Assembly: GCA_964467905.1 (NCBI GenBank)
Contig: CAYXSY010000005.1
Span: 9,800 to 73,799 of the forward strand
Direction: 5' to 3'
Length of the DNA stretch: 64,000 nucleotides
DNA from: an uncultured Planctomycetales bacterium
GTDB lineage: Bacteria > Omnitrophota > Gorgyraeia > Gygaellales > Profunditerraquicolaceae
Part shown: positions 1 through 59,798 of the stretch, in pieces
Position numbering within the stretch: the first letter of the stretch is position 1
How the letters are laid out: each line of letters opens with the position of its first letter
Made by a program: the position numbers and the translations under genes
The notes under the pieces: model-generated
What the model was told of the DNA's origin: nothing
Database searches by the model: none
What the model saw: the letters and a program-made list of their open reading frames with translations, nothing else

Positions 1-1613
1 GCAGCGATAACCCCGGATTTAAAAGAAACGGTTGTTCGTTCGGGATAGCCGATCAATATTTGGATATCTCAAGCGTAAATGATAATATAAATTCTGCGCG
101 TGGCACAATTTCTGCATGGGCCTATCCTACGGCCGAAGGCCAGAACCGTTATGTCATTCAGGGGCTTGGGGCTAATACCAATCGCTACTATATTCAATGG
201 AATAACGGCAGTTTTAATGTATGCCGCGGTAATCCCGGAGTATGCAGGAGGCTTATTGCTGATACGCCGTTAAACAGATGGTATGCCTTGGCTATGACCT
301 GGGATACTGTTGGATCGACGCAGGTTATGAAAGGATACCTGAATGGAGAATTGAAAGCAACTGCTAATTTCATAGCGACTAATGGTATAGGCGGGTCTTT
401 TAAAATAGGCACGCAAGGCACAGGCAAGGAATTCTTAGGTTTGATTGATGAGATAAGATTTTATGACCGCGCCTTAAGCGACGAAGAAGTAAGAGATCTT
501 TATGAATATGATAAATTAGCAGGATATCTACCTTTTGATAGAATGATTTCTAATGTAGTAGCAGAAAACTCCGGGTTATTCTCCGGTCAGATTTTCGGAC
601 CGATTGTATCAGATGTGGCAGTCAGGGGTAAGTCTTTCAGTTTTAACGGTAGCCAAGACTACATAGATTTTTATAAACAGCCGTTGCTTGATTTTACCAA
701 TTCCAAAGAATTATCTTTAAGTGTATGGGTAAACCAACGCTCAAGAGGCGATATAAACGATATCTATCAGGTTATTTATAATGATGCTAAAGGTTATGCC
801 GGAGAAAGCATTACTCTGGACATAGCCAAAGACGGGAAGATTTCGTGGGCGTACAACGATGGTTCAAAGCTCTACGGTGGTATATACTCGTGCGTTGTCC
901 CGTTAAATAAATGGACGTATATAGCTTCTACTTTTGGCAAGGATGGGGCCAATGTTTATCTTGATTCTCTAAAGTGCACATTAATCGCGCCTTTTACTAA
1001 AGATGTGCCTAGGAATAAAGGTAATACTCAAATAGGCAAAGTCGGTAATTTCTCTACCAGTTGTTTTGATGGGCTTATCGATGAATTAAAGATATTCAGG
1101 ACAGAGCTAGACCAGCAGCAAATAAAGGATTTGTTCTATGAAAACATAAATGCTGTCTGTGGTAATTTTGTTGACGCAGGTTGTGCTGCTCAATGTAGTT
1201 CAAGCGGCAGATCCGTTATTTTTATAGAAAATGGTAACGGTCCTTTAGCCTTGTCGGAAGATCCGCATGCAGCTAATCGTGATGTTGCCGGATGTTGCCC
1301 TTCTGCTAATATGTGTTTTGACGCAGTTGCCGGATGCGTATCTGCAGGCCAGAGTATAGAAGTTGTATCTACTGATCCCTCTACAGGGATGCAGACTTTT
1401 TATTCCAAGACTTGCCTTGATAATACCAATGTTGACGGAGCCATTGATATTGCAAACGATCTTAGCGCTAATCCTCTTGGTGAAAGCGGGAATCATCCCG
1501 GAGGCATCCCAGTATGGTGTAGCAGCGGGGCAGGTAATGATGGTAACGGGCTGTGTTATGATAAAAATAGAAACTACGGCATTAAATTCTGTGAAAAATT
1601 TGGGTGCAGATGA
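1..1613 (+). CDS. LamG/concanavalin-A-like lectin domain exported protein, 5'-partial, with Cys-rich C-terminal tail
   Basis: The reading frame starting at position 3 has no stop back to the window edge, so the TTG at 60 in the ORF track is probably internal. Two LamG-type modules end in IDEIRFYDRALSDEEVRDLY and IDELKIFRTELDQQQIKDLF. The last ~150 aa are Cys-rich (GCCPSANMC, GLCYDKN, FCEKFGC). Confidence 0.7.
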   Translation, partial: SDNPGFKRNGCSFGIADQYLDISSVNDNINSARGTISAWAYPTAEGQNRYVIQGLGANTNRYYIQWNNGSFNVCRGNPGVCRRLIADTPLNRWYALAMTWDTVGSTQVMKGYLNGELKATANFIATNGIGGSFKIGTQGTGKEFLGLIDEIRFYDRALSDEEVRDLYEYDKLAGYLPFDRMISNVVAENSGLFSGQIFGPIVSDVAVRGKSFSFNGSQDYIDFYKQPLLDFTNSKELSLSVWVNQRSRGDINDIYQVIYNDAKGYAGESITLDIAKDGKISWAYNDGSKLYGGIYSCVVPLNKWTYIASTFGKDGANVYLDSLKCTLIAPFTKDVPRNKGNTQIGKVGNFSTSCFDGLIDELKIFRTELDQQQIKDLFYENINAVCGNFVDAGCAAQCSSSGRSVIFIENGNGPLALSEDPHAANRDVAGCCPSANMCFDAVAGCVSAGQSIEVVSTDPSTGMQTFYSKTCLDNTNVDGAIDIANDLSANPLGESGNHPGGIPVWCSSGAGNDGNGLCYDKNRNYGIKFCEKFGCR

Positions 1614-2980
1614 TTAAAGTAAATACTAAAATGATAATAAAATCGTTTCATAAAGATTTAGGGTTATTTTTTGTTGCCTTATTTATTTTAGTTTTACTTT
1701 TAATGCCAGCAGGAAAATTGACAGCCGGGATAGCGGTAGAGTGTAATCCGGAAACCGAGGACCCTTGCATTTCTACTGATGGCTCGATTTTAAGGTGTGT
1801 GCCTAAGGGAGAGTGTTGTTGGGGGACATGCAGTGATGGAAGTTGCAGGGGCAATGATTTGTGCTGCCCGGAAGATAGAAGGTGTGTTGTTGATAATGGC
1901 CCAGGAGTACCTTCTTCTACATATTGCGTTTCTCCCGATGATTGTTGTGAGCAGGTTCAAAATAATTATACTCCCGGAGAAAGAAAATGTGTCAATGAGG
2001 ATCCCCCGCGATGCATAGAAAGAGGAAGTGGTGAATGTTGCGAGGGAGAAGAATTATGTGATGATGAAGCAAATACCTGTATAGACCCGGAGAAATCATG
2101 TTGTCCCGGAGAGCGTAAATGTGAAGAATCCGGACCTGGTGGTCGACCCATTTGCGTAGACGGTGATACAGGCTGTTGTCCGAATGATGAATTGTGCGCT
2201 GACGGCGTTACTTGTGTTTGCTCTGGCCCGGGTTGCCCGTATAACAGGAGGTGTTGTCCTGGTGAAAGAGTTTGCTACGGAGATGGCGCTTCCGAAGATC
2301 GTTGTGTTGCAGAATGCCAGCCATGTTCTTCTGATTGGAAGATTTGTGTTAGGAACGGAAGATGTGTTGAGATACCCCAAAATGATTGTTGCGAAGAGTG
2401 TGTCGAAGGGGAGCAAGAATGTCTTAAAGGGCAATGTAAAGATATTCTTGTAGATACTGATCCGGATAATGATCCATCTATCCCGGGGGCTATTTATAAT
2501 AAACATACAAAGAACTTTACCGATTCGGATTGGTTTGCTGCTAATAATCCGCCAAGCGGTCCGTCTTATATTATCCGCCAGCATAGAGTCAGGAGAAATT
2601 TAGATGCAGGTAGATACGAAACATACTACGAAGATACATATTGCCCTACGGGGACTTTTGTCCATGGAACAGCTAAGGCGCCCAATGGCCTGCTTATTGC
2701 TGTCTGTGGGGTCTGGAAATGTTCTGACCCTGATTGCCAGGGCCCGGAAGAAGATCCCTGCCGCGGACATCTCTATAAATCAACATCTGCTTCTGCGTAT
2801 TTCCAATTAGCCAACGGCGAAAAGAAATATTCAGCTGTTCTGCCTGACCGTTGCGATGGCCTGAATATCTGGGAAGCCAGGTGTGTTTCCGATAATAACG
2901 GCGGGATGATCGCTGTCCCCTATGTCAGAAGCTGTCCTAATGATGGTCGTGGTTGTTCTGATGGGGCGTGTAATCCGTAA
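1604..2980 (+). CDS. membrane-anchored or secreted cysteine-rich repeat protein (CC-x5-C units), function unknown
   Basis: It has one N-terminal hydrophobic helix (LGLFFVALFILVLLLMPAG). About 8 units follow, built on vicinal Cys pairs (CCPEDRRC, CCEGEELC, CCPGERKC, CCPNDELC, CCPGERVC, CCEECVEGEQEC). I count about 52 Cys in 458 aa by eye. A DTDPDNDP linker leads into a distinct C-terminal domain. The gene overlaps the upstream gene by 10 nt. The start could be 1604, 1610 or 1631. Confidence 0.6.
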   Translation: MQMIKVNTKMIIKSFHKDLGLFFVALFILVLLLMPAGKLTAGIAVECNPETEDPCISTDGSILRCVPKGECCWGTCSDGSCRGNDLCCPEDRRCVVDNGPGVPSSTYCVSPDDCCEQVQNNYTPGERKCVNEDPPRCIERGSGECCEGEELCDDEANTCIDPEKSCCPGERKCEESGPGGRPICVDGDTGCCPNDELCADGVTCVCSGPGCPYNRRCCPGERVCYGDGASEDRCVAECQPCSSDWKICVRNGRCVEIPQNDCCEECVEGEQECLKGQCKDILVDTDPDNDPSIPGAIYNKHTKNFTDSDWFAANNPPSGPSYIIRQHRVRRNLDAGRYETYYEDTYCPTGTFVHGTAKAPNGLLIAVCGVWKCSDPDCQGPEEDPCRGHLYKSTSASAYFQLANGEKKYSAVLPDRCDGLNIWEARCVSDNNGGMIAVPYVRSCPNDGRGCSDGACNP

Positions 2981-3050
2981 ATAACCGCTTTATGTGTAGT
3001 TCTATATATTAGAATAAATAGAATAAGGGATACCCGCGTTAATAATTCGC

Positions 3051-3079
3051 TTGACCGCTATACAGAACCGCAGTAATCT
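3051..3079 (+). promoter_or_regulatory. candidate sigma70-type promoter (TTGACC-N17-TAATCT) upstream of the DsbA-like gene
   Basis: ttgacc lies at 3051-3056, followed by a 17-nt spacer and taatct at 3074-3079. The site is about 57 nt upstream of the ATG at 3136. Confidence 0.35.
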
Positions 3080-3135
3080 ATTAAAACCAACCGCAAAAAT
3101 AATGTTATAAGCTGATTTAGATTAAGGAGGCGTAA

Positions 3136-3891
3136 ATGAATGACAACGCTAAGAATATTTGGATAGCTGTAGCTATGGTTTTGGCAGCTTTGATATTAGG
3201 GAGCTGTTTTATTATCGGCATAACTATGTTAACCAGTACCATTAATAACAAAGAGATAATAATTTCGGATAAGAGCTTAGACAAATTGACTGTTGCTATC
3301 CAGAGCCTTAGGCAGAATCAAGTTGTGCCTCAGCCGAAAATGCCGCAGCCGGGAGAGAAAAGGGTAGAGAATGCGGGTGTCGGCGCAACGCCGATAAGGG
3401 GCAAAAGCAGCGCCAAAGTTCTTATGATTGAGTTTAGCGATTTCCAGTGTCCGTTTTCAAAAAGATTCTACAGCGGTTCATTCCCGCAGCTGCAAAAAGA
3501 CTATATCGATACCGGCAAGGTTAAATTCGCCTACCGCGATTATCCTTTGGGATTCCATCCACATGCAAAACCGGCAGCCATAGCCAGCCGTTGCGCGGAT
3601 AAGCAGGGTAAGTTCTGGCAGATGTATGATAAGCTCATGAGTAATAACGCTGTTGACCAGGATAATATCAAGAGATATGCCCAGGAGATAGGGTTAAACT
3701 CTGCCAGCTTTGAAAAGTGTCTTGCTGATTCTTCAGTGGCTAAAGCAGTGGATAAAGATATGGAAGAGGCTAATAAGCTTGGCGTTCAGGGTACGCCGGC
3801 TTTCTTTATCAACGGCCGTTTTATAGAAGGCGCTTATCCCTACGAGGTGTTCAAGAAGATAATTGATGAAGAACTATCCGGTAAGAAATAG
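3136..3891 (+). CDS. DsbA-family thioredoxin-fold protein, membrane-anchored, with a CPFS (monothiol) active-site motif
   Basis: A strong RBS (aaggagg) precedes the ATG. There is an N-terminal TM helix. The DsbA-like block is VLMIEFSDFQCPFSKRF...GTPAFFINGRF. The second active-site codon is TCA (Ser), where CxxC family members have Cys. Confidence 0.75.
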   Translation: MNDNAKNIWIAVAMVLAALILGSCFIIGITMLTSTINNKEIIISDKSLDKLTVAIQSLRQNQVVPQPKMPQPGEKRVENAGVGATPIRGKSSAKVLMIEFSDFQCPFSKRFYSGSFPQLQKDYIDTGKVKFAYRDYPLGFHPHAKPAAIASRCADKQGKFWQMYDKLMSNNAVDQDNIKRYAQEIGLNSASFEKCLADSSVAKAVDKDMEEANKLGVQGTPAFFINGRFIEGAYPYEVFKKIIDEELSGKK

Positions 3892-3948: not shown

Positions 3949-4893
3949 ATGAAACGTATAGCTATCTTATTAGTTTTATTACTGTTTTGTTTCTCAAATA
4001 ACGCCTATTCTTATTGGATTTGGACGCCTAAGACCAATAAATGGGTTAATCCTAAGACTGCGGTCAAGGCCACGCCTAAGGAACAATTTGAATATGCCAT
4101 GGGGTTCTATGATGCTAAGAGCTACGATGAGGCCAAAAGAGAGTTTAAGAAACTGATAAGGAATTATCCTAAGTCACTTGAGGCAGCAGAAAGCCAGTAT
4201 TATCTTGGGCTTACAGAGGAGAACCAAGGCAACCTATACGAGGCGTTTCAGGCTTACCAGAAAGTCATTGATACCTATCCTTTTTCCAGCAGAATCCAGG
4301 AAATAATCGAGCGTCAATACAAAATAGGCGAGGAGTTTATGTCAGGCTACAAGCGTAAAGCCTTAGGCGTTGCCCTGCCTGTTGAGAATCCTTCCATAGA
4401 AATATTTACCAAGGTCGTCGAGAATTCTACTTATGGCCCTCTGGCAGCCAAGGCCCAGTATAAATTAGGTTTAGTGTTAAAGAGCTTGGGGCGTTATTAT
4501 GAAGCAGAAGATGCCTTTAATAAAGTTATCACTAATTATGCGGACAGCGAGTGGGTTGAAGCAGCTAAATTTCAAATTGCTGCTTGCCGGGCCAGCCTTT
4601 CACGTAGTTCAGACTATGACCAGGGTGCGACAAAGGAGGCTAAGGATAAATTTGAACAGTTTGTCCGGGAGCATCCAGATGCCGTCCTTTCCCGTGAAGC
4701 CGAAAAGAGTATTGATGAACTGAAGGAAAAAGAAGCCCAGAGCAGTTATAATATAGGTTTATTCTATGAGAAGCAGGGCGCTTATGCTTCAGCCAGAGTT
4801 TATTATAATGATATAGTAGATAAATATCCGAGGAGCAAATGGGCTGCTAAGGCATTAGAGCGCCTCGGTATACTGGATAAGAAAAAGAGATGA
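3949..4893 (+). CDS. bamD: outer membrane protein assembly factor BamD (TPR lipoprotein)
   Basis: The signal peptide MKRIAILLVLLLFCFSNNAYS begins at the internal ATG 3949. The ORF-track TTG at 3919 lies inside the promoter. TPR-like repeats are present (YYLGL...G.YEEA, AQYKLGLVLKSLGRYYEAEDAFNKV). The gene sits upstream of lptE-holA. Confidence 0.7.
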   Translation: MKRIAILLVLLLFCFSNNAYSYWIWTPKTNKWVNPKTAVKATPKEQFEYAMGFYDAKSYDEAKREFKKLIRNYPKSLEAAESQYYLGLTEENQGNLYEAFQAYQKVIDTYPFSSRIQEIIERQYKIGEEFMSGYKRKALGVALPVENPSIEIFTKVVENSTYGPLAAKAQYKLGLVLKSLGRYYEAEDAFNKVITNYADSEWVEAAKFQIAACRASLSRSSDYDQGATKEAKDKFEQFVREHPDAVLSREAEKSIDELKEKEAQSSYNIGLFYEKQGAYASARVYYNDIVDKYPRSKWAAKALERLGILDKKKR

Positions 4894-5435
4894 AGAAGGG
4901 TATTTTTGTATTAAGTATTTTTTGTTTGTTTCTTGGCTGCATCGCCGGATGCGGTTATACTACGCGCTCACTGATTGCCGATAAGTATAGCACTATCTAC
5001 GTAGATAATTTTATTAATAAGATAGACATAACCCGCGAGGGTGACGCAGAGATGCGCTATAAGATATATAAGCCTACCCTGGAAGTAGATATTACCCGTG
5101 CTATTATAGACAGGCTTATTTTTGACGGTAATCTGAAGCCGGTTAAGATAGGCGATGCGGATTTGACGCTTAAAGGCGAGTTGGTTGCTTTCGATAGAGA
5201 TCCTCTTAAATACACAAACAATGATGAGGTTGCCGAATATAGAATAAACGTAAGAATAAATATGGTTCTCAAGGATAACAAAGCGGATAAAGAGCTTTGG
5301 CGGGAAAATAACTTTACAGGCAGTAAGGCATATTTTACTACGGGGCCTTATGCGCAATCAGATGATTCAGCAGTGCATGAAGCGGTGGTTGATTTGGGCC
5401 GTAGGGTAGTAGAGCGCATTGTCGAAGAATGGTAG
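4890..5435 (+). CDS. lptE: LPS-assembly lipoprotein LptE-like
   Basis: A lipobox is present (LFLGCIAGCGYTTRS). Size and pattern fit LptE. It lies immediately upstream of a holA-like gene, which is the lptE-holA order known from E. coli. Confidence 0.6.
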   Translation: MKKGIFVLSIFCLFLGCIAGCGYTTRSLIADKYSTIYVDNFINKIDITREGDAEMRYKIYKPTLEVDITRAIIDRLIFDGNLKPVKIGDADLTLKGELVAFDRDPLKYTNNDEVAEYRINVRINMVLKDNKADKELWRENNFTGSKAYFTTGPYAQSDDSAVHEAVVDLGRRVVERIVEEW

Positions 5436-6109
5436 CCAGCCAGGTTGGTAGTCTACACGTTTTCCTGGGGCTTGATATAATCGGCCCTGACGGAAAATCC
5501 AGGAAGCAAATCACACTCAATAATATAAAATCCAGTGTTTTCAGAGCAGGCGCAGATATCTTTAATCTTGATGTCGTGCATTCTAAAGAGCTTACCTTAA
5601 AAGACCTGCAGAAGTTTTTTCTACAGCTGCCGGTTAATTCTCAGAATAGGATTATTGTAATTAAGGATTCGAAACATCTTAAACCAGAGTTAAAAGATTT
5701 TATCTTAGCTGAAGTTGCCAGTGGGCTTAAGAATGGTTTAATTTTGATTTTTGATGTTAACGAATCAAACCCCAAGGATGATTTCTTGGCTAAGATTATG
5801 AGTAAAGCGCGGGTATGGCGTTTCCGTCAGGAAATCCAGAACAATACTTTTACTCTTACCCGTCAGATAGAAGCAAAAAAGAGTGCCTCAGCCCTGAAGA
5901 TATTAAATCAGCTTCTTAAAGACGGAGAAAAGCCGGAAAGAATCTTAGGTGGGTTAAGGTATGCCTGGATGAACGATTTAGCCACTCCTTTAGAGAAGAA
6001 AAAAAGGCTTAAAATGCTTCTTGACTGCGACCTGGAGATTAAGACAGGCAGAGTAAAAGGTGATTTTGCTCTTGAAAGGCTGGTAGTCAGGTTATGCGCC
6101 TCTAGATAA
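5429..6109 (+). CDS. holA: DNA polymerase III delta subunit (HolA)-like, compact (226 aa)
   Basis: The C-terminal pattern ILGGLRYAWMN...LLDCDLEIKTGRVKGDFALERLVVRL resembles HolA domain III. Synteny with lptE supports the call. The protein is about 110 aa shorter than typical HolA. Confidence 0.5.
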   Translation: MVASQVGSLHVFLGLDIIGPDGKSRKQITLNNIKSSVFRAGADIFNLDVVHSKELTLKDLQKFFLQLPVNSQNRIIVIKDSKHLKPELKDFILAEVASGLKNGLILIFDVNESNPKDDFLAKIMSKARVWRFRQEIQNNTFTLTRQIEAKKSASALKILNQLLKDGEKPERILGGLRYAWMNDLATPLEKKKRLKMLLDCDLEIKTGRVKGDFALERLVVRLCASR

Positions 6110-6355
6110 CTTCAGCGTTAGGCGTGATTTCTTTCTGTCCGCCATTCTTTTATGGATAACGTTCTTTTTGGCAGCTTTATCGAGCTGGGAAAAAGCTTTT
6201 TGCAGAAGGGTCTTTGCCTCGGCGATGTTTTTTGCCAGAATTAACTCGTTAAATTTCTTGAGTGTCTTTTTTAAATCGCGCTTAACATTTAGATTTCTTA
6301 TACGTTTCTTTTTGTCCGCGCGTTTTCTTTTTAATGAAGTTCTGCGTCTTGGCAT
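6092..6355 (-). CDS. rpsT: 30S ribosomal protein S20
   Basis: An 87-aa basic protein, MPRRRTSLKRKRADKKKRIRNLNVKRDLKK...KNVIHKRMADRKKSRL. An AAGGAG RBS lies upstream on the minus strand. Confidence 0.9.
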   Translation of the reverse strand: MPRRRTSLKRKRADKKKRIRNLNVKRDLKKTLKKFNELILAKNIAEAKTLLQKAFSQLDKAAKKNVIHKRMADRKKSRLTLKLSRGA

Positions 6356-6422
6356 TTTTTTCTCCTTAAGTTATATATATTGGGTTAAATTAATAGGTCA
6401 CTTATAGCATAATTGGATAAAA

Positions 6423-8003
6423 GTGTCAATACTAAACCCAGCCTCTAAAGAATCCGAGTATCACCACCGTCATATAGCCAAATCCAGCACTTTGATTGGC
6501 ATAGCGACATTTCTGTCCCGTCTTCTGGGATTTATCCGCGATATCGTTATTGCCAGGCTTTTTGGGGTTTATGTTTATGCCCAGGCTTTTGTAGTTGCTT
6601 TTAAAATCCCCAATCTTTTGCGCGATTTTCTGGCAGAAGGAGCAGCTAACGCTGCTTTTGTTCCGGTTTTCAGCGAATACTTATCAAAACGCAGCAAAGA
6701 AGAGTTCTGGGAGTTAGCTAATGTAATCCTCAATCTTCTTTTAGTTTTATTGACCTTAATTACAATAGCCGGTGTGTTGCTGGCGCCGGTTTTAGTGCGC
6801 CTTATCGCTCCCGGTTTTTTGTCCGATCCTTACAAATTAAGCGCAACGATAAACCTGACCCGCGTTATATTCCCTTATATTATGTTAATTGCCCTGGCTG
6901 CATACGCTACGGCAATATTAAATTCGCTGCGGTATTTTTCTCTCCCTGCTTTTGCGCCATGTTTATTAAATATTTCTATCATAGCTTTTGCTTTAGCTTT
7001 CGGGGAGAATACCGCAGGACTGGCATTGGGCGTCTTAGCCGGAGGCCTTCTGCAGCTTTTGATACAGGTTCCGGTCTTGTATAAGAAAGGATTCCGCCCG
7101 TCGTTATTCAGGCGCTTCAGGCATCCTGCGGCATCCGAAGTTGGCAAACTTATGGTTCCGCGGCTTGCCTCAACCTCAATATATCAGCTTAATAACTTTG
7201 TAGACTCTATTTTTGGATCACTGGCTAGAATTGTCGGGGAGGGGGGAGTAGCCGTACTTTACTTTGCTTACCGGCTCATACAATTCCCAATAGGCATATT
7301 CAGCAATGCGCTTTCGCAGGCGATATTACCTACCTTGTCTACGCAGGCAGCCGGTGGTGACAAAGAGAGTATGAAAAATACATTTTTATGGGGCTTGCGG
7401 ATGGTTTTTTTTGTTATGATCCCGGCGCAGGTAGGTTTTATGGTTTTATCCAGGCCGATTATACAATCTTTGTTTGAAGGGGGAAAATTCGATACCTACG
7501 CTACATTACAGACTGCAGACGTACTGTTTTTTTATTCCATAGGGCTTTTTGCTTATGGCTCAACCAAAGTTACTCAGTGTGCTTTTTTTGCACTTAAAGA
7601 TACGGTAACTCCTACTAAGGTGTCGGCCCTTACTTTGGCGCTGAATATAATTTTTAATGCCATATTTATGTTCCCCTTAAAAGTAGCCGGCCTTGCCCTT
7701 GCTACTTCAGTTTCGGGGATTATTTCTTTCTTTGTTTTGCTATCTTTGCTTGAGAAGAAAGTCGGGGATATGGATATGCGGGAGGCTAGTTTTTCCTTTA
7801 TCAAGATGTTAGTGGCCAGTTTAGCTATGGGGCTGATTTGTTCTTTACTTTACAGAAGCCTTAACTTAGGAGCGGGTTATCTCAATAAGCTGCTAGTTTT
7901 GATTATTACCGTTATGACGGCAGCATTATCGTATGTTTTATTTTGTTTTTTATTAAGGGTACAAGAGATACATCAGATACGCAGCTGGATAAAGAGAAGA
8001 TAA
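6423..8003 (+). CDS. murJ: lipid II flippase MurJ (MviN)
   Basis: A 526-aa polytopic membrane protein with the typical MurJ N-terminus (TLIGIATFLSRLLGFIRDIVIARLFG...FVVAFKIPNLLRDFLAEGAANAAFVPVFSEY). It uses a GTG start. Confidence 0.9.
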   Translation: MSILNPASKESEYHHRHIAKSSTLIGIATFLSRLLGFIRDIVIARLFGVYVYAQAFVVAFKIPNLLRDFLAEGAANAAFVPVFSEYLSKRSKEEFWELANVILNLLLVLLTLITIAGVLLAPVLVRLIAPGFLSDPYKLSATINLTRVIFPYIMLIALAAYATAILNSLRYFSLPAFAPCLLNISIIAFALAFGENTAGLALGVLAGGLLQLLIQVPVLYKKGFRPSLFRRFRHPAASEVGKLMVPRLASTSIYQLNNFVDSIFGSLARIVGEGGVAVLYFAYRLIQFPIGIFSNALSQAILPTLSTQAAGGDKESMKNTFLWGLRMVFFVMIPAQVGFMVLSRPIIQSLFEGGKFDTYATLQTADVLFFYSIGLFAYGSTKVTQCAFFALKDTVTPTKVSALTLALNIIFNAIFMFPLKVAGLALATSVSGIISFFVLLSLLEKKVGDMDMREASFSFIKMLVASLAMGLICSLLYRSLNLGAGYLNKLLVLIITVMTAALSYVLFCFLLRVQEIHQIRSWIKRR

Positions 8004-24856: not shown

Positions 24857-24910
24857 AATTTAATCTGCCGGCTTCCAAATCCGCAGTTTACCGTCTAAAT
24901 GGAGGATAAG

Positions 24911-25489
24911 ATGAGAAAAATCACGTTTATCATGGCAACATTGGTGGCTGCTGTAGTAGCTTTTGGCTGCGCTGCCGAGCAAAAGGCGCCGGCTAAACCA
25001 AAAGTTATTCTACTTATATCCGAACAAAATATAGAAGGTCCCCAGCGTGCCTGGTGGGCAAGTGAAATAGACTTATCTACCACGGAAGCTAAATTGGCAA
25101 CCAAGCTTATAGATGGCGGTTATGAGGTTCTTGAACCTTCGAATTTGAATAGAATTATCAATCAGGATAAAGCGTTTCGCTTGGTGAATTTCTCGGATGA
25201 TAAGGCAGTGAAGCTGGGAAACTTATCTAAAGCCAATTACGTGATTTTAGGCAAGGCTATTGCTTCCAGCGGAGGCAATGTCCCGCAGTCTAATATGCGC
25301 TCATGTTTTGCAAATATATCTGCTAAGGTAATTAATGTAAAAGACGGTAAGGTATTGGCTTATCTGGATGCTTCAGGAAGTTCTGCACATATGGATGTTA
25401 TAACCGGAGGCAGGGAGGCGCTTTCTGCTGCCGGAGATGATCTTGCATTGAAAGTTCTGGATGTTTTAAATAAGCAGGGAGGGAAATGA
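24911..25489 (+). CDS. lipoprotein of unknown function, partner of the CsgG-like gene
   Basis: A GGAGG at 24901-24905 serves the ATG at 24911. A lipobox is present (VVAFGC). The alpha/beta pattern is loosely reminiscent of the CsgG/LpoB/FlgT-N fold. I recognise no confident family. Confidence 0.45.
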   Translation: MRKITFIMATLVAAVVAFGCAAEQKAPAKPKVILLISEQNIEGPQRAWWASEIDLSTTEAKLATKLIDGGYEVLEPSNLNRIINQDKAFRLVNFSDDKAVKLGNLSKANYVILGKAIASSGGNVPQSNMRSCFANISAKVINVKDGKVLAYLDASGSSAHMDVITGGREALSAAGDDLALKVLDVLNKQGGK

Positions 25490-25490
25490 T

Positions 25491-26231
25491 ATGAAGAAGT
25501 TTCTTTTAGGGTTTTGTATTTTGATGTTATTTATCGGCCTTACCGGTTGTGAGACGATGTCTCAGCCTACGGCCCAGGTGGATAATAATGCTGGTGTGGC
25601 GCCTCTGCCGCCTTATTCCGGGCCAAAGGCGCGTGTGGCAGTTGCTGATTTTGATGTTAAGGCTGCTAAGGCTCACGGAGAAATAGGCACGGGTTTAAGA
25701 GAGATGTTGGTTACAGCCCTTATTAATAGTAATCGTTTTTCGGTTCTTGAGCGTCAGGCATTAAGCGCGGTTATGCAGGAGCAGGAGTTATCTGCCTCCG
25801 GTGCAGCCCAGACCGGCGCAGGTGGCCCGCAGAGAGGTAAGATTAAAACAGCCGATTTAATTATTACCGCAGCTGTCACTGAATTTGAGCCTCAGGCTTC
25901 AGGCGGAGCAGGTGGTATCGGCGGAGGAGGCAGTGTCGGCAGCGGAGTCTTAGGCGGGCTTCTCGGGGCGACGATGAACAAATCCCATATGGCGCTTGAT
26001 ATCAGGATTATAGATTCTTCTACTTCAGAAGTTTTAGCTGCTACCCGCGTGCAGGGGCAGGCTTCGGATGTAAGTGGCGCTATCATGGCGGGATTCTTGG
26101 GAAGTTGGGGTTTAGGCGCAGGATTATCCGGATATGCTAATACTCCGATGGAGAAAGCAATACGAGTTTGTATAATTGAGGCTGTTAGATATATAGCGCA
26201 GACTGTGCCGCCGACTTATTATAAATATTAA
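25491..26231 (+). CDS. CsgG-family lipoprotein (curli-type secretion channel homologue) with a Gly-rich insertion
   Basis: A lipobox is present (IGLTGC). The CsgG-like core reads ARVAVADFDVKA...GTGLREMLVTALINSNRFSVLERQALSAVMQEQEL. An insertion reads GGAGGIGGGGSVGSGVLGGLLG. Confidence 0.65.
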   Translation: MKKFLLGFCILMLFIGLTGCETMSQPTAQVDNNAGVAPLPPYSGPKARVAVADFDVKAAKAHGEIGTGLREMLVTALINSNRFSVLERQALSAVMQEQELSASGAAQTGAGGPQRGKIKTADLIITAAVTEFEPQASGGAGGIGGGGSVGSGVLGGLLGATMNKSHMALDIRIIDSSTSEVLAATRVQGQASDVSGAIMAGFLGSWGLGAGLSGYANTPMEKAIRVCIIEAVRYIAQTVPPTYYKY

Positions 26232-34009: not shown

Positions 34010-35167
34010 ATGGCTAAAGATCCTATTTGCGGCATGGCGGTTTCAGAAAAATCGGCCATTAGGGTTACCAGTGATGGCCGGGATTATTTCTTTTGTTCCG
34101 CGCATTGCAAAGATAAATTCCTCAAGGAAAATTCCTTAAGCGAGCAGGCAGTTTGTTATCCCGCAAAAAAAGAGCCCATCTTTAGAAACAAATCCTTTAT
34201 AATTGCCTCTATAATTATAATTATTATTTTTTTATCCTATTTTTTACCAGTTTTGTTGCCTCTAAGAAGTTCTTTATTGAATTATATCAAGGCGATTTGG
34301 TGGGCGGTATTATTCGGGCTAATTTTAGGCGGAGTAATTGATTACTATGTACCAAGAGAATATATTTCCAAGACTCTTGCTAAAAGGAATCCGAAAACTA
34401 TATTGAATGCCGTATTCTTAGGTTTTTTGATGAGTGCCTGCAGTCACGGAATACTTGCTCTTTCTATCCAGCTTCATAAGAAGGGTGCTTCAGGGCCTGC
34501 GGTAGTGAGTTTTCTCTTAGCCAGCCCATGGGCGAATATGGCAGTAACGATGATGTTATTGAGTCTGTTTGGCCTTAGGGGATTATTAATTATTCTTATG
34601 GCTATAATTATCGCGATAAATACCGGGTTTATTTTCATGCTTCTTGAGAAGAAGGGTTTGATTGAGAGAAATAAGCATATCGTAGATGTGCCTGATAGTT
34701 TTTCTATACGTCAAGATATGAAAAAACGTCTCAGGGAATATAAATTTAACCTGAAATCCGATTTTTTGGGTGTGTATAGAGGAATAGTTTCGCTTTCTAA
34801 TATGGTTTTGTGGTGGATTATGCTCGGGGTTTTGTTTGCCAGTATCGCCGGTTCTTACATACCGGTGCATTTCTTCCACCAATATATGGGTCCGACCATC
34901 TTCGGCCTTTTAATTACTTTAGCGCTGGCAACAGTTATCGAAGTTTGTTCTGAAGGCTCATCACCTCTATCATTTGAGATCTATCGGCAAACAGGGGCAT
35001 TAGGCAACAGTTTTGTTTTTTTGATGGCGGGCGTAGTTACTGACTATACGGAAATAGGCCTGCTTTGGACAAACGTAGGCAGGCGTACTGCTTTATGGCT
35101 GCCCGTTATAACTGTGCCACAGGTTGTGTTATTCGGCTACTTGATGAACCTGATTATAAGTCATTAA
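34010..35167 (+). CDS. predicted permease (ArsP/DUF318-like) with an N-terminal YHS/TRASH metal-binding domain
   Basis: The N-terminus DPICGMAVSEKSAIRVTSDGRDYFFCSAHCKDKF is a YHS/TRASH-type domain. The remainder is a polytopic permease with the motif VIEVCSEGSSPL. Confidence 0.65.
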   Translation: MAKDPICGMAVSEKSAIRVTSDGRDYFFCSAHCKDKFLKENSLSEQAVCYPAKKEPIFRNKSFIIASIIIIIIFLSYFLPVLLPLRSSLLNYIKAIWWAVLFGLILGGVIDYYVPREYISKTLAKRNPKTILNAVFLGFLMSACSHGILALSIQLHKKGASGPAVVSFLLASPWANMAVTMMLLSLFGLRGLLIILMAIIIAINTGFIFMLLEKKGLIERNKHIVDVPDSFSIRQDMKKRLREYKFNLKSDFLGVYRGIVSLSNMVLWWIMLGVLFASIAGSYIPVHFFHQYMGPTIFGLLITLALATVIEVCSEGSSPLSFEIYRQTGALGNSFVFLMAGVVTDYTEIGLLWTNVGRRTALWLPVITVPQVVLFGYLMNLIISH

Positions 35168-42122: not shown

Positions 42123-42281
42123 ATGGAAAAATACAGATGTACGGTTTGTGGTTATGTTTATGATCCGGCAGTAGGCGACCCGGATCACGGGGTAAATGCC
42201 GGGACTAAATTCGTAGATTTGCCTGCGGATTGGGTTTGTCCGGAATGCGGCGTGGGTAAAGACATGTTCGAGAAGGTTTAA
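42123..42281 (+). CDS. rub: rubredoxin (52 aa; below the ORF-track cutoff)
   Basis: The sequence [52 protein letters not shown] carries both CxxCG knuckles. An RBS (aaggag) is present. The stop overlaps the next ATG (TAATG). Confidence 0.95.
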
Positions 42282-43147
42282 TGATTATGAGCAGACAAGT
42301 TAAATTTAAAGGCTCTCCTCTTACTTTGGTTGGCAGATATTTAAGCCGGGGAATAGTGGCTCCGGATTTTAAGGTTATATCGGCTGAATTAAAAGAAGTT
42401 TGTTTATCAGAGTTTAAGGATAAAATCAAGATTGTAAACTTTTTCCCTTCCCTTGATACGCCGGTATGCGATTTGCAGGTAAAGGAATTTAATAAGAAAG
42501 CAGCCGGTATTTCTGCGGATATAGTTGTAATCGGAATAAGCAAAGATTTACCTTTTGCCCAGGCAAGATTCTGCCATGAAAACGAAATTAAGAATGAGTT
42601 AGTATTTTCAGATTATAGATATTCTTCCTTTGGCATCAACTACGGAGTTTTAATTAAAGAACTTAATCTTCTCGCACGCGGAGTAGTTATTATCGACAGT
42701 AATAACATTTTAAGATACATCCAAATAGTAGATGAAGTAACGAATGCGGTTAATTATGAGCAAGCACTTAAAGAGCTGGAGGCTGTAATTAGTGCCACAG
42801 CGTCTTTAAGGCCACAAGAAGAGCTGTCTTCTCACTGCAAGCCTTGCGAAGGGCAAGTTGCTTCTTTGCCTCAAGATAAGATCAATAGATTAATCGCCGC
42901 CTACCGCGGTTGGGAACTTATTGACGGTAAAAAAATAGTGAAGGAATTTAAGTTTAAAGATTTTATCGAGGCAAAATATTTTATCGATCTTATTTCGGTT
43001 ATCGCTGAAGAGCAAGGGCATCACCCTACCATAACCGTAATTTATAATAAAGTCAGGCTAACGCTTAGCACTCACGCAGCAGGAGGCCTGACTGATAACG
43101 ATTTTATTATGGCTAAATTAATTGATGGATTAGGATATGCCGGTTAA
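42281..43147 (+). CDS. fusion protein: thiol peroxidase (Tpx, atypical 2-Cys) + pterin-4a-carbinolamine dehydratase (PCD/DCoH)-like domain
   Basis: The Tpx part is FFPSLDTPVCDLQ (peroxidatic Cys) and ARFCHENEI (resolving Cys). After an ~25-aa linker comes HCKPCEG...YRGWELIDGKKIVKEFKFKDFIEAKYFIDLISVIAEEQGHHPTITVIYNKVRLTLSTHAAGGLTDNDFIMA, a typical PCD. Confidence 0.8.
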   Translation: MIMSRQVKFKGSPLTLVGRYLSRGIVAPDFKVISAELKEVCLSEFKDKIKIVNFFPSLDTPVCDLQVKEFNKKAAGISADIVVIGISKDLPFAQARFCHENEIKNELVFSDYRYSSFGINYGVLIKELNLLARGVVIIDSNNILRYIQIVDEVTNAVNYEQALKELEAVISATASLRPQEELSSHCKPCEGQVASLPQDKINRLIAAYRGWELIDGKKIVKEFKFKDFIEAKYFIDLISVIAEEQGHHPTITVIYNKVRLTLSTHAAGGLTDNDFIMAKLIDGLGYAG

Positions 43148-53480: not shown

Positions 53481-53756
53481 ATGCATCAGCATGCTACTCA
53501 TGAGGAACAATTAGAGTTTTTAAAGAAGATAGAAGGTCAGGTGCGCGGTATCGAAAGGATGATTACAGAAAAAAGATATTGCGTGGATATTATTACTCAA
53601 CTTTATTCTGTTATTGGTGCCCTGCGTAAGGTAAAAGACGGCATATTCAAGAAGCATATCGAAAGTTGTGTAGTCGGGGCGCTACAAGGAAGATCAGAAG
53701 CAGAGAAACAGAAAAAGATTTCCGAGGTTATGGAGCTTATTTCTAAGCTAAGGTGA
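53481..53756 (+). CDS. csoR: CsoR/RcnR family metal-sensing repressor (C-H-C ligand set, copper type)
   Basis: The block GQVRGIERMITEKRYCVDIITQLYSVIGALRKV...KKHIESC carries Cys, His and Cys at the expected ligand positions. The start is moved to 53481, because the track ATG at 53448 lies inside the promoter. Confidence 0.8.
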   Translation: MHQHATHEEQLEFLKKIEGQVRGIERMITEKRYCVDIITQLYSVIGALRKVKDGIFKKHIESCVVGALQGRSEAEKQKKISEVMELISKLR

Positions 53757-53773
53757 TCTATATAGAGGACAGG

Positions 53774-55045
53774 ATGGCAGCCTTATTCAAAAGTACTCTG
53801 AAGGTAGTGATTATATTAGGTGCGGTATTTTTGTTAAATAGATATGCTGCTGCGCAAAGTTCTTCTCAAGGCCTAACCAGTCTTATTGAAGAAGGTCTAA
53901 AGAATAATCCTCAGATTCAGGCTGCTTACAATAATTGGCAGGCTGCCAGATACAGAATAGCGCAGGTATCGAGTTTGCCGGATCCGATGGTAAACTATTC
54001 CTATTTCGGTGAAAATATAGAAACAAGGGTCGGACCGGAAAAAGATAAGTATGGAGTTTCTCAAAAAATTCCCTTTCCCGGTAAACTTGATCTTAAGGCA
54101 AAATCACAGATAAAGAATGCCCAAATGTTTAAGGAAGGCTATGAAGCGGCAAAGAGGGAGCTGATAAAGAATATTAAATTTACCTATTATGATATTTTCT
54201 GGATCGATAAAGCCATAGAAATAACCGAAAGCGAAAAGGCTATACTTGAGAATCTGGAACAAGCTGCAAGCAAGAGATATGAGACTAACCTTAGCCCTCA
54301 GCAGGATGTTATCAAAGCCCAGGTTGAGATTACCAAAATGATTAACAAGATTTTTGTTCTTGAAGAAAATAGGAATAATCTGGTGGCAAAGTTAAATAGT
54401 CTTCTGAATCGTCCCGAAGGTACACCTTTAGATAAGCTTGCATCATTTAAGCTAACCACTTTTGATTATGACAAACAGGGATTGGAGGAAATGGCTAAGC
54501 AATCACGCCAGGAATTATTGGCTGCGGGGCTTGCCGTCCAACGCGCAGAATACGAAAGGTCCCTGGCAAAATTAGATTATTTTCCCGATTTAACTCTCGG
54601 CTTCGATTATTTTAATATAGAAAGCGGCCATACTAATGCCCATAATGACGGCCAAGATGCCTGGTCCGGAACCATTGCTTTTAATGTCCCGCTTTGGTTC
54701 GGAAAATTGTCTGCTCAGTTAAAAGAGAAAAAGGCAATGCTTGAGGCGAGTAAAAATGATTACCAGAATATCGAAAATAGCGTTTCTTATGAGTTAGATG
54801 ATGTTTATTTCAAGATCAAAACCTATAAAGAAATAGTTTTACTCTATGAAACTGCGCTTATCCCTCAGACCGAACAGGCCTTTGATGCCGCTAAAACCGC
54901 CTATGAAACACAAAAGGTGGATTTCTTAAGTTGGTTAGATTCTGAGCGCGTGCTGTTACAGACCAGGCTTGCTTATTACAAATCGATAGTTGATTATGAA
55001 AAGTCTATTGCTTATCTGGAAAGAATAGTCGGCAGGGATTTATAA
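53774..55045 (+). CDS. TolC-family outer membrane efflux protein (CusC-like)
   Basis: It has a signal peptide (AALFKSTLKVVIILGAVFLLNRYAAAQ) and two OEP repeats. It is the first gene of an RND tripartite operon. Confidence 0.8.
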   Translation: MAALFKSTLKVVIILGAVFLLNRYAAAQSSSQGLTSLIEEGLKNNPQIQAAYNNWQAARYRIAQVSSLPDPMVNYSYFGENIETRVGPEKDKYGVSQKIPFPGKLDLKAKSQIKNAQMFKEGYEAAKRELIKNIKFTYYDIFWIDKAIEITESEKAILENLEQAASKRYETNLSPQQDVIKAQVEITKMINKIFVLEENRNNLVAKLNSLLNRPEGTPLDKLASFKLTTFDYDKQGLEEMAKQSRQELLAAGLAVQRAEYERSLAKLDYFPDLTLGFDYFNIESGHTNAHNDGQDAWSGTIAFNVPLWFGKLSAQLKEKKAMLEASKNDYQNIENSVSYELDDVYFKIKTYKEIVLLYETALIPQTEQAFDAAKTAYETQKVDFLSWLDSERVLLQTRLAYYKSIVDYEKSIAYLERIVGRDL

Positions 55046-55062
55046 TAGAAGAGGAGCCGTAA

Positions 55063-56253
55063 ATGAAGAAAAAGATAGCCTTTCTGATCCTAGTCCCGAT
55101 TTTTATTATTGCCGTAGCTGTTATTTTCTGGAAAACGGCTCAAAAACCAGAAGCTGCCATTTGGGGATCTTCGGATGGGGCAGACAAGAGCAGGCAGGCA
55201 GAGAATGATGGGACTAAGGCAAGAAAAATAATTTTTTATCGTAATCCAATGAATCCATCTATTACCTCTAAGGTCCCGGCAAAAGACCAGATGGGCATGG
55301 ATTACATTCCCGTTTATGAAGAGGAAGAGACAGTCGTAGCATCAGATCGGGTAATTAGCAAAGTAAAAATAAAGAAAGCAGAGGCACAGCTTGCAGACGT
55401 AGAGACGCAGCCTGTTGCCAAGGGCAGGCTCTATAAAGAAATCCGCACTGTGGGCAAGGTTGCTTATGACCCTGCTCTTACTATCGCCGAGGAGGAGTTT
55501 GTTTCAAGCTTAAAGGCTTACGATAAGATTAAGCAAGGAGATATTGCTGAAATAAAAGAAAGGGCAACCAATCTTGTTGATGCGGCAAAGAAAAAGCTTA
55601 TGTTGCTAGGTCTAAGCGAAGAGCAGATTGTTGAATTAGAAGATACCAGGCAGCTGCATTCAAATTTGGTCTTGCCTCAAAGTAAGATGTGGGTTTATGG
55701 AGAGTTATATGAATACGAGCTGGGTTGGGTAAAAAGAGGAGAGAAGGTAAAGATAACTACTTTGAGTCTCCCGGGTGAGGAATTCGAAGGGATAATTGCT
55801 TCTTTGAACCCTGTGCTTGATCCTAAGACACGCTCTGTTACCTTCCGCGTAGAAGTAGAAAACCCCGGATTAAAATTAAAGCCCGAAATGTATGTCGACG
55901 TGGATATCATGAGTGCTTACTTGGGTCCAGAGGGTCAAGAGGAGAACTTATTTATTCCCAAAAATGCAGTTTTGGATACAGGGAAAAGAAAGATTGTTTG
56001 GGTTGATAAAGGCGATGGAGAATACGAAGGTATAGAGGTGGCCGTTGGCCCAGAAGCCATATTTGAAAAAGATAATATGAAGATGAATGTTTATCCTGTG
56101 TTAAATGGGCTCAAAGAAGGTGTTTTAGTAGTTAGCAAAGCCAATTTTCTCATTGATTCTCAGAGTCAGATTTCCGGGGTGGCAGCTTCGGCTTATGGTG
56201 GAGCACTCGGTGCCGGAGATAAAGAAGTAAAAGGTGCTGGATCCGAAGATTAA
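55063..56253 (+). CDS. cusB: RND efflux periplasmic adaptor, CusB-like
   Basis: The N-terminal motif YRNPMNPSITSKVPAKDQMGMDYIPVY parallels the PM-x-P...M-x-M-D-L-x-P segment I recall from CusB. The lipoyl and beta-barrel MFP domains follow. Confidence 0.75.
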   Translation: MKKKIAFLILVPIFIIAVAVIFWKTAQKPEAAIWGSSDGADKSRQAENDGTKARKIIFYRNPMNPSITSKVPAKDQMGMDYIPVYEEEETVVASDRVISKVKIKKAEAQLADVETQPVAKGRLYKEIRTVGKVAYDPALTIAEEEFVSSLKAYDKIKQGDIAEIKERATNLVDAAKKKLMLLGLSEEQIVELEDTRQLHSNLVLPQSKMWVYGELYEYELGWVKRGEKVKITTLSLPGEEFEGIIASLNPVLDPKTRSVTFRVEVENPGLKLKPEMYVDVDIMSAYLGPEGQEENLFIPKNAVLDTGKRKIVWVDKGDGEYEGIEVAVGPEAIFEKDNMKMNVYPVLNGLKEGVLVVSKANFLIDSQSQISGVAASAYGGALGAGDKEVKGAGSED

Positions 56254-56274
56254 TATTCCCCAGAGGATAATAAT

Positions 56275-59200: not shown

Positions 59201-59436
59201 GCCTTTTAAGGATCAGGCCGATTATGATGACAACCATGACCACGATCATTGCTCTTATCCCAGTTATGCTTTCTACCGGTACAGGCTCAGAAATCATGAA
59301 GCCCATGGCTTCTCCTACAGTCGGAGGCTTGGTTACTGCTACGTTATCAAACTTGCTTCTTGTGCCTTCATTGTATTGTTGGGTTAAAGAAAGGGCATTT
59401 GGCAAAGCGTTGGTAAAAGAAAAAAGGGGGATATAA
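56275..59436 (+). CDS. cusA: heavy-metal efflux RND transporter, CusA/CzcA family
   Basis: A 1053-aa, 12-TM RND protein. The TM4 motif GGIAIAIGVMVDSGCVLVENI resembles the CusA-type AIG-x-MVD. Confidence 0.85.
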   Translation: MINKVIEICLKNRFLVIATFVLVIFWGFNAMEETPVDAIPDIGELQVIVYADWPGRSPRDVEDQVIYPLTTGLMGTPKVKVVRSISSFGFGLVNMIFKEGTDFYWARTRVLERLNFATKDIPKDTVVTLGPDATALGQIFWYTLEGKGYSLDELRSIQDWYVRYQLTSVEGVAEVASVGGYVKQYQIDIDPNKLLAYDVKLNEVINAVRRSNIDVGAKVFEEAGQEFIVRGLGFIKNIPDIENIVVGSKNGVPIYIKNIANVSLGPEFRRGALDKNGKEVTGGVVLMRYGQNPLRVIENVKNKIKELSVGLPPGVKIVPFYDRTGLIERAIGTLKTALTQEIIITVFIIIIFLLHLWGSVVISIVLPIGILIAFILMRLVGVDANIMSLGGIAIAIGVMVDSGCVLVENIYRKIAERREEKRVNKLPAEERLSVCTSAAQEVGKPVLFALLTTIIGFVPVFVLTGQAGKLFRPLAFTKTFAMVGAAIIALTLMPTLCYLLLKGRLRPLDQNKTAKLLHKIYKPIIGWSLIHKSKIIIISIAIVILGLVCGSLMKQEFMPPLNEGDLLFMPVLLPGASLTEVTEIVKKQDIVIKNDFPDEIEWAVGKVGRAETATDPAPVVMIETIVHLKDKKYWRKGLTREKLIQEIQEKTRMPGVSPIMTQPIRNRIDMLATGIQTPVGIKVFGPNLNKIVEIASEIEKIVSNVKGAVSPYAERISNRPYFEIEIDRQQAARYGLKVEDIQDIVMTAIGGMNLTTTVEGRERYPVRVRYLRELRDSPEALERIFVPTPKGEHIPLVQLAKLRKVPGPAVINSENTLTYARIFVNVNQEKVGLIDFVKNAQKAVQDKIKSKELVLPAGYFISWSGQFESEMESRKRLLPSLLIALTVILILLYMAFKKVSTLFILSTGLPVSLMGGIILLYLLNFRFSTAVWVGFIALFGVATDNAVVLVAFLDDLFAKKVPQSVEEIRQTVIAGCLLRIRPIMMTTMTTIIALIPVMLSTGTGSEIMKPMASPTVGGLVTATLSNLLLVPSLYCWVKERAFGKALVKEKRGI

Positions 59437-59798
59437 TGGGAAAGTCATATTTAGTATTAGTAGGATTAATTGTAGTTTTTAGTTTAGTTATCTTAGATAA
59501 TAGCTACAGCGCGCAGAGTAATAATGAGAGTGATGACAAAAATGTTTCTCAAGAGAAAGCGGTAAATGTGGGGAATAAAATTTGTCCGGTTTCCGGAGAT
59601 AAGATAAATGAAAAAACAAAGGCCACCTATGAATACAAGGGTAGGGTTTATAATTTCTGTTGTCCAGCTTGTATTGAAGAATTCAAAAAATATCCCGAGA
59701 AATACATCAAGAAGATAGAGGATGAACTGCAGCAAAATACCGAAGAGAAAATCAAGCCAGCCCCTCATATGCAGATGAATAGAGAAGAAGAACAATAG
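59436..59798 (+). CDS. exported YHS/TRASH-domain metal-binding protein (occupies the CusF position)
   Basis: It has a signal peptide (MGKSYLVLVGLIVVFSLVILDNSYSAQ). The YHS motif is CPVSGDKINEKTKATYEYKGRVYNFCCPACIEEFKKYPEKY. The start overlaps the cusA stop. Confidence 0.75.
   Translation: MGKSYLVLVGLIVVFSLVILDNSYSAQSNNESDDKNVSQEKAVNVGNKICPVSGDKINEKTKATYEYKGRVYNFCCPACIEEFKKYPEKYIKKIEDELQQNTEEKIKPAPHMQMNREEEQ

Follow-up and report, generated by a model that had tools for sequence, protein, structure and literature searches.

A monothiol DsbA-like protein in the Omnitrophota

The 64-kb stretch analyzed here (hereafter the window), taken from the forward strand of contig CAYXSY010000005.1 of an uncultured bacterium placed by GTDB within the Omnitrophota, carries at positions 3136..3891 of its forward strand, on which all features described below are given, a gene for a 251-amino-acid DsbA-family protein that has lost the second cysteine of its active site. 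The open reading frame (ORF) is intact and is preceded by a ribosome-binding site, AAGGAGG, at 3124-3130. Both Pfam families recovered score above their family thresholds, Thioredoxin_4 (PF13462) with an E-value of 2.5e-36 and 125.8 bits (cutoff 23.2) and DSBA (PF01323) with 6.8e-22 and 78.6 bits (cutoff 25.6), and together with the ORF, an AlphaFold2 (AF2) model and Foldseek they assign the protein to the BdbD/MdbA/alpha-DsbA1 class. Its active-site tetrad, C105-P106-F107-S108 (3448..3459), is encoded by TGT CCG TTT TCA, with C105 at 3448-3450 and S108 at 3457-3459; the translated stretch around it reads MIEFSDFQCPFSKRF, and the same region is also given as VLMIEFSDFQCPFSKRF. In phmmer searches against PDB, each residue of CPFS falls in one column with its counterpart in the CPFC of TsdA (7unn) and of Corynebacterium diphtheriae DsbA (4pwp), which puts S108 in the place of the second, resolving cysteine; the best sequence match in that database is 7uno, the engineered C129S mutant of TsdA, which likewise reads CPFS. 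The CxxC dithiol is taken to define DsbA, the disulfide oxidase of the textbooks. Since the first cysteine is kept here while the second is a serine, the appropriate name is monothiol DsbA-like protein rather than DsbA oxidase.

The AF2 model, for which 76 homologues served as input, has a mean predicted local distance difference test score (pLDDT) of 88.3, rising above 95 over residues 80-248, and shows a thioredoxin fold in which helices 144-214 are inserted between strands 129-135 and 222-225, that is, a helical domain after beta3. The best Foldseek matches are 4pwo, 3eu3, 3f4r, and 7unn (E-values of 1e-13 to 1e-14), with a probability of 1.00 for 4pwo, 3eu3, and 3f4r. At the N-terminus, DSSP on the model delimits a hydrophobic helix of residues 3-40 (3142..3255), a predicted membrane anchor or uncleaved signal, followed by a low-confidence linker (residues 41-83) with pLDDT below 50 at 39-47 and 60-65. 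Across the clade defined below, the consensus N-terminus stays hydrophobic and is devoid of a conserved lipobox cysteine. With such an anchor the protein would be extracytoplasmic and face the periplasm, a topology that is predicted from the model. A lipoprotein attached through Cys24 (LGSC) was considered and dropped, this cysteine not being kept in the clade.

Other family assignments were tried and failed. The best NCBIfam match, NF041057 (Rcas_1661 family thioredoxin-like (seleno)lipoprotein), reaches 116.2 bits, under its cutoff of 190; the conserved lipobox is missing and codon 108 is never TGA, which also rules out the selenocysteine at position 108 that this match had prompted us to consider. 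The GST-kappa/HCCA-isomerase branch, with a catalytic serine at the place of the first cysteine, does not fit an invariant cysteine at this position or an export anchor. Monothiol glutaredoxins of the CGFS type were rejected on the lack of a Glutaredoxin Pfam match, the proline at motif position 2, and the DsbA fold, and membership of the eukaryotic CxxS protein disulfide isomerase (PDI) family (ERp44/AGR2) was rejected on the grounds that the sequence and structure matches listed are all of the bacterial DsbA class. It is worth adding that the source annotations of the clade proteins ("DsbA family protein", "thioredoxin domain-containing protein", and "protein-disulfide isomerase") do not flag the missing cysteine.

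The original prediction had read precisely this from the letters of the window, a DsbA-family member whose natural site is CxxS, with a serine at the position of the resolving cysteine, and Pfam, the PDB alignment, and clade conservation agree on it. Among 78 single-domain proteins C105 is found in 78/78, and position 108 is S in 63, T in 13, and C in 2. The T220-P221 pair (3793..3798, ACG CCG), which corresponds by sequence position rather than by measured cis conformation to the Thr-cisPro loop typical of class II DsbA, is equally invariant (78/78), its threonine being T in 564/579 dithiol relatives; C105, T220-P221, and about 20 further positions are invariant in the clade. The serine codon is no sequencing error either, for the identical 251-amino-acid protein with the same neighbors is found in an independent assembly (L092, SRR15237811), and codon 108 is TCA, TCC, or TCT (Ser) or ACT (Thr), never TGY or TGA, in 12 loci of relatives. 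Together with the 75 clade members, the intact ORF, and its ribosome-binding site, these observations rule out a sequencing or assembly error or a pseudogene, to which we would give practically no chance.

Distribution and ancestry of the monothiol state

An alignment of 714 domains and a neighbor-joining tree define a monothiol clade of 76 tips: the 76 closest homologues form one monophyletic group. Far from being uniformly CPFC, the domains at least 53% identical to the query are CxxS or CxxT in 75 cases out of 76 (63 S, 12 T); those at 52% identity or below in this alignment are all CxxC. All clade members that carry a name in their source are Candidatus Omnitrophota/Omnitrophica. The release factor encoded in the window shares 70-73% identity with proteins that nearly all bear the name Omnitrophota or Omnitrophica, in line with an Omnitrophota origin of the window. 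Similarly, among the 120 best homologues the single-domain proteins of about 250 amino acids read C-P-[FY]-[ST] and the longer tandem-domain proteins CPFC. The single exception in the clade, P0096 (257 amino acids, on a Logan contig of 2370 bp), reads CSYC; it keeps the alpha1 features described below, with S96 and L164, and its dithiol is probably a secondary reversion.

The tree also places outside the clade 38 monothiol domains that are dispersed in multi-domain proteins. An exhaustive search of representatives, whose ranking is led by proteins with 3-6 tandem DsbA domains on account of summed domain scores, was used for the background ratio of CxxC to CxxS/T and not for the limits of the clade; in the multi-domain relatives 374 domains are CxxC versus 27 CxxS/T. 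Many of these proteins (P0121-P0270, e.g., P0121 with 1163 amino acids) have 3-6 tandem DsbA (Thioredoxin_4) domains, mostly CPFC, and the roughly 7% of tandem domains that are CxxS/T are interspersed with dithiol domains in one chain, as in P0148 (CPFS-CPFC-CPFS); in P0149 all three domains are monothiol.

As outgroup we took 80 loci among the matches listed in a genome-collection scan with the clade alignment, all from phyla other than the Omnitrophota. Their recognizable DsbA-type motifs, drawn from many bacterial and archaeal phyla, are CP[FY]C or a similar CxxC, so the dithiol is the ancestral state. Family-wide, domains that keep the first cysteine have at the fourth position C in 579, S in 95, T in 18, and Ala or Gly in none. 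In other words, whenever the second cysteine was lost from a domain that keeps the first, it became S or T (113/113), never A or G, which argues for selection on a functional hydroxyl at position 108 rather than for decay or loss of function. Conservation on this scale points firmly to a monothiol state fixed by purifying selection throughout the Omnitrophota clade.

Residues that changed with the cysteine

The loss of the second cysteine did not come alone. Nine residues before the active-site cysteine, L96 (3421..3423) replaces a threonine, leucine being present in 96% of the clade and threonine in 82% of the 579 dithiol domains; at position 108 the clade has Ser or Thr where dithiol domains have Cys; at position 109 it has Lys instead of Ala, Gly, or Ser; and Y164 (3625..3627), a phenylalanine in most of the clade, replaces a histidine found in 507/579 dithiol domains (88%), the clade being F or Y here. 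The changes T96L, A/G109K, and H164F/Y co-occur with the loss of the second cysteine and are specific to the monothiol clade. The closest dithiol relatives (e.g., L010, L011, and P0006) already share an alpha1 region that is three residues longer (F111, Y112, P117, I124, T126) and already have the extra cysteine pair too.

This pair consists of C153 (TGC, 3592..3594), in the helical domain and present in 75/75 members of the clade, and C195 (TGT, 3718..3720), present in 70/75 and located in helix 189-196 of the model; both are found together in just 25% of dithiol relatives. The alignment register equates C153 with Cys97 of Wolbachia alpha-DsbA1, a protein with a second, non-catalytic disulfide, C97-C146, in its helical domain (PMC3839904; title of 3f4t). 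Because of this match, we take C153/C195 for a probable structural or regulatory disulfide that was inherited, rather than for a stand-in for the resolving cysteine.

A second monothiol family in Melainabacteria

When metagenomes were scanned with a DNA pattern encoding FSDFQCPFSK, 32 loci came up, about half of which encode a separate CPFS family: proteins of 240-260 amino acids with an N-terminal anchor, mostly with one cysteine in the entire protein, whose identity to the query is about 35%. Loci of this type are L096-L098, L104, L105, L108, L109 (2232-3011), L112, L113, L115, L120, and L122-L124. The named members of the family are Candidatus Melainabacteria, with 93 clusters of CPFS; 19 CPFC clusters at 50-55% identity, likewise named Melainabacteria, form a sister group. 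Since the Melainabacteria CPFS proteins have a CPFC sister clade of their own, the switch is independent and arose at least twice, and on these groupings the loss of the second cysteine is convergent in Omnitrophota and Melainabacteria. The threonine nine residues before the active-site cysteine is M, K, or Q in the Melainabacteria CPFS proteins and kept in 19/19 of their CPFC sisters; its loss is thus common to both monothiol groups. The two families have in common the FSDFQCPFSK motif, the N-terminal anchor, and the lost upstream threonine, but the Melainabacteria proteins lack the alpha1 insertion and the C153/C195 pair, keep H164, and have a valine at the buried-acid position. A search of their neighbors in the metagenome loci gave just ordinary local synteny.

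Genomic context and the cysteine-rich neighbor

Downstream of the monothiol gene lie bamD (3919/3931-4893; Pfam YfiO/TPR and NCBIfam BamD), lptE (4890-5435; identified as LptE in L001), and holA (5429-6109; NCBIfam holA). bamD starts 27 nt past the monothiol DsbA gene and lptE and holA follow with overlaps. Relatives at 96%, 77%, and 65% identity (L001-L005, L090) have the same gene order, dsbA-bamD-lptE-holA-rpsT, and dsbA is probably co-transcribed with bamD-lptE in the window organism, where it lies beside genes of outer-membrane biogenesis and would be a housekeeping envelope factor.

Upstream, outside this conserved unit, lies a variable neighbor, a gene (1604..2980) for an exported cysteine-rich protein which, as the original prediction had counted, has 52 Cys (11.4% of its 458 residues). 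That prediction went on to see in the monothiol DsbA a dedicated folding, tethering, or quality-control partner of this protein, which would mean long-lived mixed disulfides in the manner of ERp44 or AGR2. A gene with about 11% Cys does stand directly upstream in the window and L092, in L090, and in L004, where it has 44 Cys. It forms with a LamG gene a variable cassette between comEC and dsbA (window 60-2980, L004 4690-7860, L090 1-708, L092 957-4162). The L090 cassette is orthologous to that of the window; in L004 the protein encoded after the LamG gene has 44 Cys and no detectable similarity to the 52-Cys protein, which speaks against a dedicated pair. More tellingly, the orthologue at 96% identity (L001-L003) has comEC directly upstream and neither the LamG nor the cysteine-rich gene (L001 5631-5833).

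A dedicated partnership is weakened further by what separates the two genes. Downstream of the cassette, between the cysteine-rich gene and dsbA, a block of about 60 nt (3040..3104) is nearly identical in L001 and contains a promoter-like TTGACC (3051-3056)-17 nt-TAATCT (3074-3079). A consensus promoter scan did not call this block, its -10 hexamer matching 3/6 positions; as L001 keeps it without the cassette, dsbA may nevertheless have its own promoter there, a proposal drawn from conservation alone. Between the conserved block and the dsbA ribosome-binding site, L001 has in addition an insert of about 60 nt (about 5735-5800) with a long inverted repeat (GGGGACAGTTCTATTTTC...GAAAATAGAACCGCCCC), missing from the window; this insert may represent a small mobile element or else a hairpin involved in regulation.

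The monothiol state is clade-wide while the cassette is confined to one subgroup, and farther away in the clade the association vanishes. For seven orthologues farther from the query, the neighbors are unrelated housekeeping genes (gltX, lexA, ackA, [FeFe]-hydrogenase, histidine kinase, and others), no neighbor family is shared by at least 3 of 10 further metagenome loci of the clade, and across the 11 lineages and these 10 loci we found no conserved neighbor of the monothiol DsbA. A background frequency of cysteine-rich ORFs in the outgroup (54/80 loci positive) was discarded, because the count used untrimmed stop-to-stop ORFs, some of them probably spurious. In one distant locus, L006 (56% identical), the gene upstream of dsbA (5275-6786) encodes a 503-amino-acid Hint/PT-HINT protein with 19 Cys, and a gene for a DsbD_2 (CcdA-like) membrane protein (2623-3276) lies about 4 kb upstream of dsbA.

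Co-occurrence with a cysteine-rich gene holds in three of the four closest lineages and fails in L001-L003, the seven distant orthologues, and the 10 metagenome loci, and the dedicated partnership itself is contradicted by the cassette-free 96% orthologue, the intervening block, and the unrelated distant contexts. Synteny thus largely refutes this reading, and we regard it as very unlikely. By its conservation, the monothiol DsbA is an enzyme variant of nearly the whole Omnitrophota lineage, not a helper specific to its cysteine-rich neighbor; the 52-Cys protein could still be among its substrates.

Redox partners and gene content of the window

The remark of the original prediction that the window lacks DsbB and VKOR holds for the 39 ORFs covered by a Pfam scan, which include no DsbD either, although 64 kb says little about the genome. 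A second periplasmic thiol-disulfide oxidoreductase was not found among these ORFs either, nor a DsbB or VKOR within about 7-8 kb of 10 orthologues. The window contains genes of envelope biogenesis (SecA, Lnt, lipid A acyltransferase, MurJ), an oxidative-stress set of the anaerobe type (rubrerythrin, prismane/Hcp, flavodiiron protein, and peroxiredoxin), a Grx-like protein, and a thioredoxin-reductase-like flavoprotein.

With such a gene content it is tempting to hypothesize a one-Cys oxidase, in which Cys105 would be charged by cystine or another low-molecular-weight disulfide, by a polysulfide or persulfide, or by H2O2 via sulfenic acid, and would pass the oxidizing equivalent to substrates through a mixed disulfide, replacing DsbA-DsbB/VKOR in quinone-poor anaerobes. 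DsbB and VKOR were missing from the 39 window ORFs and from the surroundings of every orthologue inspected, and the C153/C195 pair and the cysteine-rich exported neighbors imply that disulfides are formed. There are precedents as well: SdbA of Streptococcus gordonii is cited as working, and oxidizing, with a single one of its CXXC cysteines (PMC12453122), and under anaerobic conditions polysulfides can drive the formation of disulfides in the absence of DsbB (PMC11921322). That the same switch took place independently in Melainabacteria also fits an oxidase. Against it, Saccharibacteria and Woesearchaeota, lineages of the candidate phyla radiation (CPR) and DPANN type, keep CxxC in our outgroup, so that anaerobiosis alone is insufficient as an explanation. 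CPR and DPANN-type lineages are generally regarded as fermentative. Moreover, the window protein keeps its N-terminal cysteine, unlike SdbA, whose active single cysteine is reportedly the C-terminal one. All in all, we consider a one-Cys oxidase possible although unlikely.

Some further features of the window deserve mention. At 42281-43147 a peroxiredoxin (Redoxin/AhpC-TSA) domain is fused to a pterin-4a-carbinolamine dehydratase in one 288-amino-acid ORF. There are two YHS-domain proteins, one (34010-35167) fused to an ArsP-type permease and the other (59436-59798) small and exported, directly after an efflux cluster of the OEP-HlyD-RND type (53753-59436), which suggests metal (copper?) handling. 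Finally, two adjacent genes for lipoproteins of the CsgG family, a family of curli-type secretion channels, lie at 24899-26231.

A proposed function in disulfide exchange

We propose that the monothiol DsbA is a general catalyst of disulfide exchange in the envelope, a shuffling enzyme, isomerase, or holdase working by way of mixed disulfides, rather than an oxidant complete in itself; we put the probability of this reading at about 50%. From an ancestral C-P-[FY]-C, the buried resolving cysteine would have been replaced by Ser, or by Thr in some relatives, leaving the thiolate of Cys105 exposed and retained with the helix dipole, Pro106, and the Thr-cisPro loop, and the hydroxyl of Ser or Thr at position 108 may stabilize this thiolate. 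Cys105 would then attack substrate disulfides, or become thiolated, to give a mixed disulfide. Because an intramolecular disulfide is impossible, any redox chemistry must pass through this mixed disulfide (or through a sulfenate or persulfide), which could not be resolved within the enzyme; its release would call for a second cysteine of the substrate or a small thiol, and it is for this reason that we favor a general exchange catalyst. Single-Cys variants of PDI keep isomerase activity.

Several points weigh against this proposal. The isomerase or holdase role is inferred from active-site chemistry alone. The conserved C153/C195 pair implies that periplasmic disulfides do form, so an oxidant must exist somewhere, and the monothiol DsbA, with an external oxidant, could itself be that oxidase. 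Lastly, a cysteine-rich gene is immediately upstream in the window, L090, and L004, that is, in most of the closest lineages, if limited to that subgroup, so that the protein may have some functional tie to substrates of this kind.

Other chemistries have been considered: a redox-inactive chaperone or pseudo-enzyme, the handling of sulfenic acid or peroxide, ScsC-like copper binding, or a thiol transferase of the GST-kappa/HCCA type. The DSBA superfamily does have non-oxidase members such as GST kappa (PMC2757866), ScsC-type copper-resistance proteins are among the structural neighbors, and the surroundings of the active site have been remodeled. Nonetheless, the invariant Cys105 and Thr-cisPro and the strict S/T at position 108 favor thiolate chemistry over a pseudo-enzyme, a single thiol makes a poor Cu(I) site, and no Pfam or NCBIfam match to those subfamilies was obtained. 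GST-kappa-type proteins lack the first cysteine and are cytosolic; the window protein keeps this cysteine and has an export anchor. We hold these chemistries, taken together, to be distinctly unlikely.

Returning to disulfide exchange, a bolder extension would be that the Omnitrophota and, independently, one branch of the Melainabacteria gave up the CxxC DsbA-DsbB/VKOR system altogether and use a single-Cys DsbA as their main periplasmic catalyst, either charged by small-molecule oxidants from the environment or from metabolism (polysulfide, cystine) or purely shuffling. This is speculative and we think it rather doubtful; if true, it would represent a previously unrecognized bacterial mode of oxidative folding, tied to a quinone-poor, anaerobic, and possibly host-dependent life. 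Whatever its exact function, a monothiol form that is natural and selected in the clade holding all named Omnitrophota homologues found, and convergent in Melainabacteria, constitutes a natural experiment on a one-Cys DsbA, and bears on the question of how anaerobes possibly devoid of DsbB/VKOR and quinones form or repair the disulfides of their envelope. The clade-specific T96L, K109, and H164F/Y offer concrete targets for mutagenesis.

Comparison with known systems

In the searchable literature, including that on Omnitrophota and disulfides, we found no description of a natural CP[FY][ST] DsbA, and a preprint on the distribution of quinones yielded nothing usable on the Omnitrophota. The atlas of thioredoxin folds considers motif exceptions to be widespread, and the part of it available discusses Cxxc for glutaredoxins and glutathione peroxidases and not for BdbD-like DsbAs (PMC2757866). 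The closest relatives of the window protein are the class II DsbA oxidases, namely BdbD of Bacillus subtilis (3eu3), DsbA/MdbA of C. diphtheriae (4pwo), TsdA (7unn), and alpha-DsbA1 of Wolbachia (3f4r), to which it is 30-34% identical with a root-mean-square deviation of 1.8-2.5 A over about 171-185 columns. It has in common with them the inserted helical domain, the F-S-D-F-x-C-P-F context, the Thr-cisPro loop, and the N-terminal anchor, and its second cysteine pair probably matches C97-C146 of alpha-DsbA1. Unlike them, it has Ser or Thr for the second cysteine and no intramolecular redox-active disulfide, and it carries the changes T96L, A/G109K, and H164F/Y.

Monothiol thioredoxin-fold proteins of an oxidizing or export compartment are familiar from the eukaryotic CxxS members of the PDI family, ERp44 (CRFS), AGR2 (CPHS), and yeast Eug1p, which use mixed disulfides in retention, isomerization, and mucin handling. 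The likeness is functional only: the thioredoxin fold of these proteins is plain, lacking the helical insertion of DsbA, their origin is independent, and no sequence relationship to them was detectable in the searches run. SdbA offers a precedent for an exported thiol-disulfide oxidoreductase for which one cysteine is enough in an organism without a DsbB-type partner (PMC12453122).

In its active site, the nearest counterpart of the window protein is an artificial one, the engineered trapping mutant C129S of TsdA (7uno), with the identical CPFS tetrad and the same fold. To our knowledge, CxxS forms of DsbA are known mainly as such laboratory trapping mutants. The monothiol DsbA described here differs from 7uno in having arisen naturally, in being shared across a clade, and in the compensating changes that go with it.

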